From assembly GCA_963733095.1 (NCBI GenBank), contig CAVTBV010000012.1, positions 416,001 to 480,000 on the forward strand: 64,000 nucleotides of DNA. Reading direction: 5' to 3'. The translations under genes and the position numbers were made by a program. The stretch is from Candidatus Bathyarchaeota archaeon. Lineage in GTDB: Archaea; Thermoproteota; Bathyarchaeia; Bathyarchaeales; Bathycorpusculaceae. Positions 27,251-33,896 of the stretch are shown here, piece after piece (within the stretch, counting starts at the first letter, position 1; the number at the start of each line of letters is the position of its first letter). The notes beneath the pieces were generated by a model. It was not told where the DNA came from. It worked only from the letters and a program-made list of their open reading frames with translations, and did not search any database.

Positions 27251-28065
27251 ACACTGAAGAAATCAAAGTTTGCGTAATGCGTGTCGGCGGAACCAACTGC
27301 GATGCTGAAACCCAACGTGCGTTCCAAGAGTTGGGCGTTCAGGCGGAAGTAGTTCATGTTAACGAGTTAATCAAACGCCGCAACCTGCTGGATTATTCGG
27401 CGCTGGTTTTTCCAGGCGGCTTCTCCTTTGGAGACTACGTGCGTTCAGGCGTTATATTTGCACGGCACCTATCCACTAACTTAGCTAAAGAAATGGAAAC
27501 CTTCATCGATGAAGGCAGACCAATTCTGGGAATTTGCAACGGCTTCCAGATCCTTGTCGAGTACGGTTTGCTTCCAGGCTTCAAAGGCATGAGCACCTAC
27601 CCCGAAGCAACATTAACCACCAATGAACCTACAGGCTTCAAATGCCAATGGACCTACCTTAAACAAGAAAACAAAGGCAAATGCCTATTCACAACCAAAA
27701 TCCCAGCTGGAAAAGTCATCAATTTACCCATCGCCCATGGCGAAGGCAGACTTCTGTTCCCCAAAGAACAAGAACAGGCGTATCTAATGAAGCTGATTGA
27801 TGAGGACATGTTGGTTTTCCGTTATTGCACAAAAGAAGGCCAAGTAGCCGACGGCAAGTACCCAACCAACCCCAATGGCTCATTTTATGATATTGCTGGC
27901 ATCTGCAACAAAGAAGGAAACATATTCGGTTTGATGCCCCACCCCGAGAGGGCAATGTTCTGGTGGCAACAACCCGACTGGACACACCAACAGCAAATGC
28001 TCCAATACGGCGATGGAAAACTAATCTTCCAAAGCATTATTGATAAACTAACCAAGAAATGCTAA
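27247..28065 (+). CDS. purQ: FGAM synthase glutaminase PurQ
   Basis: GTNCD, PGGFSFGD, GICNGFQ, AHGEG, MPHPER. Confidence 0.96.
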   Translation: MNTEEIKVCVMRVGGTNCDAETQRAFQELGVQAEVVHVNELIKRRNLLDYSALVFPGGFSFGDYVRSGVIFARHLSTNLAKEMETFIDEGRPILGICNGFQILVEYGLLPGFKGMSTYPEATLTTNEPTGFKCQWTYLKQENKGKCLFTTKIPAGKVINLPIAHGEGRLLFPKEQEQAYLMKLIDEDMLVFRYCTKEGQVADGKYPTNPNGSFYDIAGICNKEGNIFGLMPHPERAMFWWQQPDWTHQQQMLQYGDGKLIFQSIIDKLTKKC

Positions 28066-28962
28066 GTCCTTGGCATACGGTAATCCCGCGCGGGCTCCCA
28101 TAGTTATGACGCTTCTGGAAGCTACAAAATTGCCCAACTGCCCGCACTCATATAGGCTTTTTTCGTGGATTAAACCGTAGAGGAAGCCAGCGCAGAAAGC
28201 ATCTCCCGCTCCGGTTGTATCGACTACTTTTACTTTGAAGGATTCCACAGTTAGTCTTTCTTGGCCGTCTGTAACATAGCAGCCTTTGCCGCCAAGTTTC
28301 ACCGCTACAATTTTGACCCCCATAGCAATCATATAGTCGGCACCTTTGCGGTAGTCTTCTTCGCCAGTTAATTGTTCAAGTTCGACGGCGTTTGGCATAA
28401 AAACATATGAATTTCGAATTATCGGTTCAATTATCGCAAAGCCTTTCTGTGCATACAATGAGCCTGGATCAAAACTGATTTTCACGCCGTCAGGCAAGGC
28501 GCTTAAGAGCTTTTTTTGTGCACGAAAAGATTTCTCACCCACAAAAGAAGACAGGTGCAGAAATTTAGTTTGAGAAACGTATTCCCATTTTATTTCTCTG
28601 GGCTCGACTTGGTCGTTGACGCCTGAGTTTATGTAGAGGGCTCTTGCACCTTTTCGGTCTACAAAACCCATCACCGAACCGCTCCTGCCTTTGGTTGCCT
28701 CAACTATGCCGTTGGTATCGACGCCTTCGGTTTTGAAGCAGTCGAGTTGCATTTTTCCTTCTCTGTCGTTGGCGACTTTTCCTATAAAGCCCACTTTACA
28801 GCCGAGCCTAGCCAACCCAACAATCGCGTTGGCGGCGGAGCCTCCGCAGGCTTCCTTGTAATCTTCGATGAAGCTTTCTTCTTCTGCAGTTGCAAGCTTG
28901 TCTACTTTAAAGAGCATATCAACGTTGAGTGCTCCAAACCCTATAACATCAAATTTTGTCAT
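28048..28962 (-). CDS. PfkB/ribokinase-family kinase (EhaT-like)
   Basis: [24 protein letters not shown] overlap with the ftr-like gene. Confidence 0.9.
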
Positions 28963-29867
28963 ACAAACAACTCTTTTAATGGGATTTTGTGTTCACCTAG
29001 TTTGCCGCCATAGTTGCCAGCAGAAACCTTCACAATGCCATCTATGTCTAAAATGGCTTTGATTCCTGTTTTGGTGGCTTCTTTAACAGCGTCTAAAGAA
29101 ATACCGTCGAAAACGATTTCGGCGATGTATCCGACGCCTTCTGGAACCTTAGATTCATTGCCTAATCGGGATTTAAGCGAGGGACAATAAAGGTAGTTTG
29201 TTGTGGGACCTATTTTAGGAAAATGTGTTTCTGGCTTGGACCCAGCTGAACAAATGTCAAAGGTTGTTACCACGCCATGCACCTTGTGAATTGCCCGTAA
29301 TGCTTTGGCGCCCGCCTCGTTAAGTGCTTGCTTTGATGTACACATTATCCAAAAGTTGCCGCCCATAACACCCTTAGCGTAACCCAGATAGCGTTCAATG
29401 ACGAAGTCTGGAACCATCAACGGCACAACAATGACGTCTCTACCAAACCTTTTTTCAACCCATTCATACCCATCGCCGCAGTGCCCCACGCTCTCCATCA
29501 TGTCTAGTTTGCCCTCAGCTCTCGGTAAAGCATCGAAAACGGCGGTGAAGGGTTTAACGAGTATGTCTTGGCGAATACGGTAAGAGAGTTCTGTTTCGAA
29601 TTTTTTTAGTGATTCGGCAAAGCTTTTTTTTGGGTTGATTTCTCCCCAGAACTGCAAGATGGCGCCCACCCGTTTGTCTGGGGTTTCGTTTGGGGTTAAG
29701 TATTTTTCAACTCCGCCCTCAGTTCTGCCAATGACAACGGATGGCGTTGCGGTGGAGTCTTCGGCTGCCTTACGGAGGGTCTGCTCATCGTCGGCAGTAA
29801 CGATTACTCGACAATAAATCCCCGTAAACGCTTCAGCGTAGGTATCTTCAATTTGTGCTTTACCCAT
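28959..29867 (-). CDS. Formylmethanofuran:H4MPT formyltransferase-like protein (divergent Ftr-II/EhaS type)
   Basis: [34 protein letters not shown]; diverges from canonical Ftr at [12 protein letters not shown] and [12 protein letters not shown]. Confidence 0.88.
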
Positions 29868-32359: not shown

Positions 32360-32408
32360 CGAGACACACCGTTAAGTGACTAATCAGTGATGCAACACTT
32401 TATAGCGG

Positions 32409-33896
32409 TTACGGCTGAACTTCTTCAGATTCGTAAATTCTGTTTTTCTCCTCGTAGCCCTCAAGGAAACGTTTTTTCATGACATCCGCCATTTTCTGCG
32501 CGCAAGACGTGGGGTATTTGCCAGTGACGCAGGCTGAGCAAAGTTGATTTTCTGTTTGCCCTGTGGCGTGAATCAAGCCTTCCAGCGATTGGTAGCATAC
32601 TGCGTCTGCGCCAATGATTTTTGCGATTTCTTCAGGATTATTTCTGGAGCCGACAAGTTGCCCATATGTTGACATGTCGATGCCGTAGAAGCAGGGTCCG
32701 ATGATACGTGGGAAAGTGACGAAGAGATATACTTTTTTGGCGCCTGCCTTGCGGAGCTTTTCTATAATGACCTTGGTTGTGTCGCCTCGAACGACGCTGT
32801 CTTCGGTTATTATGACTCGTTTGCCGGCAACTTTACTGCCTAATATGTTGATTTTTTTGTCGATAGTTGAGTAGCGTTCGTTGTTTAGCAGTATGAACGC
32901 GCGTTCGGTTACATAGCGGTGGCGTCTTGATGCACGTTCCCACCGTAAACCCGACTCTTCATGAACGCCCATGGCGGGGTCGTCGCCTGTTTCAGGCACT
33001 GACATAATGAGGTCGCTGTCCTTGACGATTTCGGGGAATTCTTTGACGAGGTTTCTGCCGAAGGCTTCACGGATTTCGTAGACATATTTGTCGTCAAAAC
33101 GTGAGTCGGGCCTTGCAAAATAAGCATATTCAAAACAGCAGAAGGCTTCACGGGGTTTCTCTATGAGTTGGGTGCGTTTGAAGCCGTTTTCTGAAACCGT
33201 CACGAGTTCGCCAGGTTTTAACTCGAAATCTCTAACAAAACTGTTCATATCTAAGCTTACGGTTTCAGAGGAAAATGCAAAAGTTTTACTTTCAGGATCA
33301 TGTCCAGCACAAAGTGGTTTTATGCCGTGTGAGTCCTTGAAGGCAAAAAATTGCCCATCGCCTGTTATGCCAGTTACGGAGAAGGCCCCATCTAAGCTTT
33401 CCATGACTGTTCGGGCTGCTGCTTCCAAGGTTTTACCTTGCTTTAACCCTAAAAGCATTTTGTGGCAAACGATGTCGGAGTCGCAGTTGTAGAGGAAATC
33501 CGAAAAGTTTTGATTTATTTCTTTTTTGAGCGGCAACGTGTTAACGATGTTGCCGTTAAAGGAGAGTGCAAGTTTTATTCCATCGGTGGAACCGACGACG
33601 GGTTGCGTGCCGTCAATTATGGAGACGTCGTCGCATTTGCCTGAAGTTGTGTACCTTACGTTGCCGATACCTATGGATCCGGGCAGACGTTTGAACCATT
33701 CGTTTATGACGTTTGTTTTTAGTCTTGGAACTAAATCCAAGGCTTTGTGGGTGAAAAACTCGTTATTGTTGCTTGTGAGGAAACCGTGTGACTGGTGTCC
33801 GCGGTGGTTTTGTGCGCGTAGTCCCCAGTAAACATATGGAAAAACTGGTTGTTTTTCATAATTTATTACGCCAAAGATACCGCAGCCTATTTTCAG
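32409..33896 (-). CDS. purF: Amidophosphoribosyltransferase (non-canonical start codon required)
   Basis: Frame extends beyond the ORF-track call to CGIFG...QNHRGHQS; also RYTTSG, NGNI, CCFEYAYFARPDS, EDSVVRGDT, PCFYGID, CSAC. Confidence 0.93.
   Translation of the reverse strand: MKIGCGIFGVINYEKQPVFPYVYWGLRAQNHRGHQSHGFLTSNNNEFFTHKALDLVPRLKTNVINEWFKRLPGSIGIGNVRYTTSGKCDDVSIIDGTQPVVGSTDGIKLALSFNGNIVNTLPLKKEINQNFSDFLYNCDSDIVCHKMLLGLKQGKTLEAAARTVMESLDGAFSVTGITGDGQFFAFKDSHGIKPLCAGHDPESKTFAFSSETVSLDMNSFVRDFELKPGELVTVSENGFKRTQLIEKPREAFCCFEYAYFARPDSRFDDKYVYEIREAFGRNLVKEFPEIVKDSDLIMSVPETGDDPAMGVHEESGLRWERASRRHRYVTERAFILLNNERYSTIDKKINILGSKVAGKRVIITEDSVVRGDTTKVIIEKLRKAGAKKVYLFVTFPRIIGPCFYGIDMSTYGQLVGSRNNPEEIAKIIGADAVCYQSLEGLIHATGQTENQLCSACVTGKYPTSCAQKMADVMKKRFLEGYEEKNRIYESEEVQP

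Follow-up and report, generated by a model that had tools for sequence, protein, structure and literature searches.

We analysed a stretch of 64,000 nucleotides (nt) from Candidatus Bathyarchaeota archaeon (assembly GCA_963733095.1, contig CAVTBV010000012.1, positions 416,001-480,000; G000:C12 in our numbering), which is called the window below and comes from a Bathyarchaeia metagenome-assembled genome of 2.84 Mb (16 contigs, 95% complete). Three genes in the window, encoding a HAD-IB protein of the 'EhaR'/AF1437 family, a paralogue of the formyl-methanofuran (formyl-MFR):tetrahydromethanopterin (H4MPT) formyltransferase Ftr, and a PfkB-family kinase, directly follow purF and purD. We consider it fairly probable, on comparative grounds, that this module is a system formylating glycinamide ribonucleotide (GAR) to formylglycinamide ribonucleotide (FGAR), the third step of purine synthesis. 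Across genomes the HAD protein, a formyl-transfer enzyme and the PfkB kinase are inherited, lost and positioned as one unit, mutually exclusive with the GAR formyltransferases PurN and PurT.

Results

The five genes were found head to tail and tightly coupled on the minus strand. They are purF (amidophosphoribosyltransferase, 32409..33890), purD (GAR synthetase, 30947..32359; 470 amino acids (aa) with GARS_N/A/C domains), the HAD-IB gene (29868..30950; 360 aa), the gene of the Ftr paralogue (28959..29867; 302 aa) and the PfkB gene (28048..28962; 304 aa). PurF showed GATase_6/7 domains and a TIGR01134 match of 292 bits, scored on an N-terminally truncated 443-aa open reading frame. At the purD/HAD junction (TTGA) the HAD TTG start at 30950 overlaps the purD TGA (30949..30947), at the next junction the HAD stop abuts the start of the Ftr paralogue (TAA-ATG), and at the last one (ATGA) the TGA of the Ftr paralogue overlaps the PfkB ATG. 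The five genes are one operon. It converges on purM, purS, purL and purQ, which encode steps 4 and 5 on the plus strand (23474..28065; TIGR00878 270, TIGR00302 68, TIGR01736 685 and NF002252 317 bits, respectively), and the 3' ends of the PfkB gene and purQ (27247..28065) overlap by 18 nt. A preliminary description of this DNA had given these three junctions, the convergence on purMSLQ and the lack of hydrogenase genes beside the trio, all of which were confirmed in the window; the neighbours of the trio are pur genes and genes of the acetyl-CoA decarbonylase/synthase and carbon monoxide dehydrogenase (ACDS/CODH) cluster, which lies upstream of purF on the same strand (41525..34538). The trio was found neither within an eha operon nor beside membrane or [NiFe] hydrogenase genes, and the 80 related loci described next, scored for pur genes only, agree with this.

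A scan of species genomes with the HAD alignment gave 581 relatives, and the gene order was read in the best 80 loci (HAD identity 58-84%). These were all of Bathyarchaeia type, with a few records labelled Thor-, Nano- or Nitrososphaerota. The Ftr paralogue was directly 3' of the HAD gene in 80 of 80 loci, and PfkB came next in all 75 loci that reached far enough. Likewise, purD directly preceded HAD in 74/74 loci and purF preceded purD in 71/72, so that the synteny with pur genes, which the preliminary description had wanted checked, is conserved in this sample. In 51 of the 62 loci that extended far enough, a convergent purQ lay no more than about 1.3 kb from PfkB. In one genome (G029) the order purC-purF-purD-HAD-Ftr paralogue-PfkB-purE-purM was found on one strand, with the trio flanked by pur genes on both sides. 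The arrangement of the three genes is not due to chance.

Step 3 had been described as missing from the local pur cluster, and model searches of the full genome now gave the same picture. The best match to the PurN model TIGR00639 was 18 bits and Formyl_trans_N (PF00551) had no match at E<=0.01, and PurN was thus not recognised in the source genome. The best match to the PurT model TIGR01142 was 48 bits, in a 1091-aa frame that was taken, by its size, to be CarB, and PurT was not recognised either. Fhs and FolD were not found in this genome. FwdA (800 bits) and a canonical Ftr (392 bits, on C9) were present, and the organism appears to combine methanofuran/H4MPT one-carbon chemistry with formate-dependent formylation of 5-aminoimidazole-4-carboxamide ribonucleotide. 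The genome seems to hold no recognisable GAR formyltransferase, an absence left unproven by its 95% completeness. Two tandem PurP genes were found at G000:C6:32900-34365 (L007, L008). Such a tandem PurP pair was seen in most genomes of the class whatever their GAR system; several genomes instead have just one PurP-like gene, which is divergent and about 460 aa long.

The phyletic profile was determined in one even draw of 301 Thermoproteota genomes, with thresholds fixed beforehand (HAD E<=1e-20, PurN E<=1e-25, PurT E<=1e-60, PurD E<=1e-40). HAD was detected in 40 genomes, comprising 40 of the 44 class members and none of the 257 others. PurN was positive in 92 genomes, none of them in the class, PurT in 72 (three in the class) and PurD in 203. 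Among the PurD-positive genomes 39 had HAD only, 85 PurN only, 70 PurT only, one had both PurN and PurT and eight had none of these. Not one of the 203 carried HAD together with PurN or PurT, and the anti-correlation looked for in the preliminary description was therefore found (HAD only 39, PurN and/or PurT 156, both kinds 0). Most PurD-negative genomes (90/98) were without HAD, PurN and PurT. The HAD-bearing genomes mostly had two Ftr copies, a canonical one elsewhere (390-425 bits) and a paralogue beside HAD (316-362 bits), and in the HAD-bearing class genomes the PfkB orthologue adjoined the HAD and Ftr genes.

Four class members were without HAD, namely G021, which also had no PurD, and G002, G117 and G246. 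The latter three carry a PurT-like gene, have at most one Ftr, which is canonical, and no paralogue of it, and gave no PfkB orthologue at E<=1e-20. G002 and G117 represent one genus of family f7, and the other sampled genus of this family has HAD; both states thus occur in f7. PF02222 and PurT_C were detected in the PurT-like proteins of G002 and G246, the two that were scanned. In G246 the gene order was purL-purF-purF-purD-PurT-like, the PurT-like gene being in the position of the trio, and PurD and PurT were side by side in many other Thermoproteota according to the match tables. The GAR formyltransferase is therefore usually encoded in the position that follows purD.

A different replacement was found in genus g25 (G037 and G069; L089, L090, L099 and L098, which is G069:C1:430000-446000). 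Here purF and purD are followed by a PurN-like protein of 278 or 299 aa, with a PF00551 match of 63-67 bits, which is too divergent for the PurN threshold used. It keeps the N-x-H motif and the Asp; its N-terminal loop is changed, and it carries insertions at three places. The g25 genomes have canonical Ftr only and no Ftr paralogue. Their HAD is 44% identical to the HAD of the window, and their PfkB is 38-39% identical and overlaps FolD by 32 nt; HAD and the PfkB-FolD pair are located about 12 kb away in G069 and on another contig in G037. The lack of PurP in g25 fits folate-based formylation, and we regard g25 as carrying a folate-based version of the HAD/PfkB module.

Fusions were found among the 614 cluster representatives of the HAD family, in metagenomic proteins. 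P0188 (599 aa) combines a PurN-like domain with HAD; this domain shares 53% identity with the g25 protein over residues 5-246 and retains N-x-H and the Asp. P0205 (899 aa) and P0220 (961 aa) combine HAD with an ATP-grasp domain that has a short PurT-like stretch (33 bits). HAD was always the C-terminal partner in both fusion types. The extension of P0318, a single longer HAD homologue, looked like low-complexity read-through instead of a domain and was set aside. HAD and PfkB thus form a constant core, with a formyl-transfer partner that varies (Ftr-like, PurN-like or ATP-grasp).

The PurD of the window gave 234 bits with TIGR00877, below the 288-bit cut-off, and is of a divergent subtype that co-varies with the HAD module. 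E-values for the PurD model were 3e-61 to 7e-81 in the HAD-bearing class genomes listed and 1e-104 to 1e-113 in the three PurT-bearing Bathyarchaeia. PurD of the window was 55% identical to PurD of g25, and proteins within the HAD-linked subtype (the window, L098:6638-8038, L095:10310-11716) were 53-59% identical to each other, as against about 30% with PurD of the PurT-bearing Bathyarchaeia (L091:4877-6361, L092:1441-2931). The HAD-linked PurD has 'SYGAREVA' where others have 'GEGAREHA', and is without an insertion of about 15 residues and a C-terminal extension. No interpretable active-site change was seen in this subtype comparison.

The HAD protein gave weak matches to HAD models of Pfam and NCBIfam and belongs to its family by full-length similarity. 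Searched against the PDB, the family profile hit 1Y8A (E=5e-70), which is listed as hypothetical protein AF1437 from Archaeoglobus fulgidus, and the family is named 'energy-converting hydrogenase A subunit R' (EhaR) by IMG and ESM Atlas. The AlphaFold2 (AF2) model had a predicted local distance difference test (pLDDT) score of 95.9, and Foldseek returned 1Y8A first (TMq 0.81), followed by SerB (phosphoserine phosphatases) and ThrH. HAD motifs I-IV were found in the window protein at D8, S107, K212, D235 and D239. Among 58 family members D8 was present in 49, E10 in 53, S107 in 55, K212 in 56, D235 in 49 and D239 in 58. We predict that the protein is probably a Mg-dependent phosphatase or phosphotransferase. 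Prediction of a complex between the Ftr paralogue and HAD gave a score of 0.00, which speaks neither for nor against an interaction. A conserved basic tail, R-K-x-V-R-G-x-x-I-G-x-L-G, was observed at the C terminus (29868-29910, minus strand) in all close family members, and it is terminal even in the fusions. A swinging or carrier role for this tail was considered and dropped, as the AF2 model places residues 337-357 in helices with a pLDDT of 82-98 for the block.

The Ftr paralogue has the two-lobe architecture of Ftr (PF01913 151 bits, PF02741 179 bits), passes the subfamily model NF002554 (333 bits, cut-off 297) and matches PDB Ftr 1M5H at 182 bits. It does not reach the cut-off of the Ftr equivalog model TIGR03119 (233.5 vs 292.6 bits). 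In a tree of 30 rows, including a long-branch third copy of G228, the branch that separates the paralogues from canonical Ftr had 100/100 support and a length of 1.3 substitutions per site, and the canonical clade held the single Ftr of G021, G002, G117 and G069. Twenty sites are fixed differently between the two groups, and the paralogues have a 9-aa insertion and a single Asp in place of the canonical P-G-G (195-197), with a two-residue deletion. The preliminary description had called the Ftr divergent and not the canonical methanogenesis enzyme, which the separate clade and the TIGR03119 score bear out; it does not branch with canonical Ftr, which is encoded elsewhere (C9), and the peptides cited for it, including ICSAGSKP, are present in the translation. 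Glu250 did not vary among the 14 paralogues and the 15 canonical copies. In FhcD, Glu252 stabilises the oxyanion (Hemmann 2019), and by its alignment position in our analysis Glu250 of the paralogue probably corresponds to that residue. We propose that the paralogue is a formyl-MFR (or formyl-H4MPT):glycinamide-ribosyl formyltransferase. A search of the ESM Atlas with the paralogue returned generic Ftr/FhcD clusters only. In G228 a third Ftr-like copy was observed at G228:C26:64659-65540 (L114; 289 bits, branch 2.1), besides the canonical copy and the paralogue.

The kinase has a full-length PfkB domain (PF00294 181 bits, residues 6-295). Its best NCBIfam match was ribokinase, at scores below the equivalog cut-offs (TIGR02152 174.6 bits vs 299.65, NF008353 124.6 vs 341), and its best PDB matches were fructokinase 3HJ6 and ribokinase 3RY7. 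The protein is predicted to be ribokinase- or nucleoside-kinase-like.

Discussion

The preliminary description had suggested that the trio formylates GAR using H4MPT or methanofuran. Every computational test, by gene order, profile, displacement and fusions, was in favour of this, except that dependence on these carriers is not family-wide; as the formyl-transfer partner varies, such dependence would be confined to the version in the window. In that version, formyl-MFR would be supplied by the FwdA-containing formyl-MFR dehydrogenase, and the Ftr paralogue would take the formyl group from it, or possibly from N5-formyl-H4MPT, to the glycinamide amine. If phosphatase and kinase are both indispensable, this suggests that a phosphate comes off before the formylation and is put back afterwards. 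In the simplest scheme HAD would remove the 5'-phosphate of GAR, the transferase would formylate the riboside and PfkB would restore the phosphate with ATP, at a net cost of one ATP, as for PurT. The reverse order, with an extra phosphate added and then removed, would give an equal net reaction and may apply instead. Formyl transfer between two primary-amine formamides should be close to isoenergetic, and a phosphatase selective for the unformylated species together with a kinase selective for the formylated one could make the near-isoenergetic exchange irreversible. The assignments of GAR as the substrate, of the formyl donor, of the hydroxyl that is phosphorylated and of the phosphatase as acting before the kinase are all putative.

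Several points weigh against a GAR-formylating function of the module. The evidence is comparative throughout. The HAD-bearing genomes all belong to one class, so that the split of 39 to 0 rests on few independent events (PurT in two or three lineages, and a single swap to a PurN-like gene), and the PurT-like proteins of the three PurT-bearing Bathyarchaeia scored 239-302 bits, below the curated 502-bit cut-off. Eight PurD-positive genomes outside the class (G072, G121, G123, G150, G164, G192, G280 and G290; completeness 72-98%) had no PurN, PurT or HAD at the thresholds used, either by assembly gaps or by another solution. The HAD family is also found in Methanomassiliicoccales and in Thermodesulfobacteriota/Deltaproteobacteria. 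Its motif I is D-C-E (D-x-E) in place of the usual D-x-D, and the nucleophile Asp is missing in 9 of 58 family members. The ATP-grasp-HAD loci on two metagenome contigs (L096:10001-12895 and L097:10001-12913; proteins of 964-970 aa, GC 42-45%) had no pur or PfkB genes nearby, the neighbours being a helicase, a class-II tRNA synthetase, an ABC/AAA protein and unknowns. Finally, g25 retains HAD and PfkB although its purD is followed by a PurN-like enzyme whose catalytic residues are intact, which implies that these two are not mere adaptors for an Ftr fold. No need for a phosphatase/kinase pair is evident in g25 with its high-energy donor, and this is the main weakness of the mechanism.

The trio could instead serve another process of ribose phosphates or one-carbon cofactors, such as H4MPT or methanofuran biosynthesis, salvage or repair, or have an accessory role for Eha; it would then only be co-regulated with the purine genes, and the true GAR formyltransferase would be another protein. 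We regard this as unlikely. The co-transcription of Methanothermobacter homologues with eha genes, as given in the part of Kaster (2011) available, speaks for it, as do the overlap of the g25 PfkB gene with FolD, a cofactor-level enzyme, the presence of the HAD family in bacteria and the ATP-grasp-HAD loci without pur neighbours. However, such a role leaves unexplained why exactly those Bathyarchaeia that have a PurT-like gene lack all three members of the trio, why PurT-like and PurN-like genes are found in the slot after purD, and why HAD is fused to a PurN-like domain. Moreover, the PurT-bearing G002 and G117 keep canonical Ftr, and presumably still use H4MPT and methanofuran without the trio.

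It is distinctly improbable that the Ftr paralogue alone formylates GAR, acting directly on the nucleotide, with HAD supplying serine, as the source of glycine for PurD, and PfkB supplying ribose 5-phosphate, as the source of phosphoribosyl pyrophosphate for PurF. Such a supply would be needed with any formyltransferase, but the PurT-bearing genomes have neither HAD nor PfkB; the two are retained where a PurN-like protein replaces the Ftr paralogue, and HAD is fused to domains of formyltransferase type. The nearest characterised folds of HAD are indeed phosphoserine phosphatases and the best kinase models are ribokinase, but all ribokinase and SerB equivalog cut-offs were missed, and the source genome has another SerB-like gene (C16, 107 bits).

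GAR formylation by one of the two tandem, formate- and ATP-dependent PurP paralogues, with the trio unrelated to this step, has very little to commend it. The source genome has two adjacent PurP genes on contig C6, and PurP duplicates in archaea are unexplained in the passages of Brown (2011) available. The same tandem pair is, however, present in the PurT-bearing G002 and G246 and in the PurD-negative G021, while eight HAD-bearing genomes have one divergent PurP-like match, G222 and G294 have none and g25 has none. With the pair in PurT-bearing genomes and fewer PurP in ten HAD-bearing ones, PurP copy number does not track the gap. Equally hard to credit is a second formyl-MFR:H4MPT formyltransferase isoenzyme for the Wood-Ljungdahl pathway, which would suit the NF002554 score and the ACDS genes directly upstream, but not the deep separate clade with its 20 fixed differences and insertion, the missed TIGR03119 cut-off, or the constant joining of the Ftr paralogue to HAD and PfkB after purD and its loss together with them.

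If the module formylates GAR, its closest functional counterpart is PurT. They would share the net step from GAR to FGAR, the ATP cost and the slot after purD (in G246 and many Thermoproteota), and they are mutually exclusive. PurT is one protein of an unrelated fold that uses free formate via formyl phosphate, whereas the module has three proteins and presumably a carrier-bound formyl group. With PurN the proposed step is shared, and divergent PurN-like proteins occur in g25, in place of the Ftr paralogue, and in P0188, as a fusion with HAD. They differ from PurN itself by an altered loop at the N terminus and by three insertions, and they still have HAD and PfkB as partners. Ftr/FhcD (PDB 1FTR, 1M5H, 6S6Y) and the Ftr paralogue share the two-lobe fold family, the length and the conserved Glu; the paralogue is set apart by its separate clade, the insertion, the change of P-G-G to Asp and the linkage to HAD, PfkB and pur genes. 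The HldE kinase and the GmhB HAD phosphatase act as a pair in ADP-heptose synthesis, and PfkB kinases are known that phosphorylate ribosides of purine intermediates. The likeness of the HldE/GmhB pair to the module lies in a PfkB kinase and a HAD phosphatase acting on one sugar-phosphate scaffold; the substrates are different and no formyl transfer is involved.

GAR formyltransferase has been a recognised gap in archaea. In the passages of Brown (2011) available, purN and purT were not found in two Archaeoglobi, Methanopyrus kandleri and four species labelled Methanomicrobiales, which the text names as Methanothermobacter, Methanosphaera and Methanobrevibacter, and GAR formyltransferase was unidentified in seven purine-prototrophic or near-complete archaea. 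The portion of Chadwick (2022) available likewise describes the gap in ANME-1, Archaeoglobales and Methanobacteriales and calls the enzyme unidentified. A. fulgidus has a member of the HAD family, and database names place the family in Methanobacteriota as well; these are the groups for which the PurN/PurT gap is reported.

The trio had also been likened to EhaR/EhaS/EhaT, encoded at the ends of eha operons in Methanobacteriales. This held in part. The HAD family bears the name EhaR in IMG and ESM Atlas, and in the part of Kaster (2011) available EhaS and EhaT of Methanothermobacter are annotated as Ftr and ribokinase, co-transcribed with eha and without a sensible role there. The three families are the same by naming and annotation, and the trio of the window differs in lying in a pur operon with no hydrogenase gene. 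Kaster (2011) was the sole relevant paper on AF1437, MTH402-404 or EhaR/S/T in the literature searched. No publication assigning GAR formylation to HAD, the Ftr paralogue and PfkB was found in that literature, whose coverage did not include subscription journals.

A wider picture may be drawn tentatively, and we would not yet expect all of it to hold. HAD and PfkB could gate the formylation of a dephosphorylated, or differently phosphorylated, glycinamide riboside as a third, non-homologous GAR formylation system that extends to EhaR/S/T and takes a plug-in formyl-transfer enzyme: Ftr-like with formyl-MFR or formyl-H4MPT, PurN-like with 10-formyltetrahydrofolate, or ATP-grasp with formate. As part of the same tentative picture, the module might supply the step-3 activity that has been missing in most Bathyarchaeia and in Methanobacteriales, Archaeoglobi, Methanopyrus and ANME-1, and EhaR/S/T might be consumers of the formyl-MFR that Eha helps to replenish, and not hydrogenase subunits.

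If the module does formylate GAR, it would fill a gap that dates back to 2011 or earlier, one of only two that remain in archaeal purine synthesis, and would link C8 of the purine directly to the methanofuran/H4MPT one-carbon pool. Three 'hydrogenase subunits' that never fitted a hydrogenase would gain a function, and thousands of 'Ftr', 'ribokinase' and 'HAD hydrolase' annotations would be corrected. Formyl transfer gated by a phosphatase and a kinase would have no known precedent. As the g25 set (PurN-like protein, HAD and PfkB) would depend on folate, the idea could be tested in E. coli, an organism lacking methanofuran.

Additional observations

The start of purF had been placed at 33896 (CTG), which comparison with relatives did not favour. 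The frame is open from an upstream TAG and reads 'IGCGIFGV', and none of the start codons ATG, GTG and TTG occurs in it upstream of the catalytic Cys (TGC 33884). In the related loci, which include L013 and L022, the codon two before this Cys is mostly ATA, ATG in L020 and L082 and ACG in L074, and L050 and L059 have an in-frame TGA two codons upstream of the putative start. A purine-rich GAAGGGA lies about 7 nt upstream of the ATA. The start is probably ATA 33890, followed by Gly and the catalytic Cys, and it may serve as translational down-tuning of the first purine enzyme.

The A+T-rich intergenic stretch 5' of purF (33891..34050, minus strand) is likely, as read from the sequence, to be the promoter region of the operon. 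In contigs of one sediment metatranscriptome run 9% of the sampled words matched, and 12 contigs, 90-99% alike, lay on parts of purF, purD, HAD, the junction of HAD and the Ftr paralogue (29763-29970) and PfkB; these derive from relatives, DNA carry-over is possible, and no meaning attaches to the parts left uncovered. In the gap between the ACDS cluster and purF (about 34050-34450, minus strand) we observed three short frames resembling a frame-broken protein of VOC/glyoxalase type (VDHTIVHFEIP..., ...GLGWWALALDPEGNTFGMLEH), which may be a pseudogene or the result of a sequencing frameshift.

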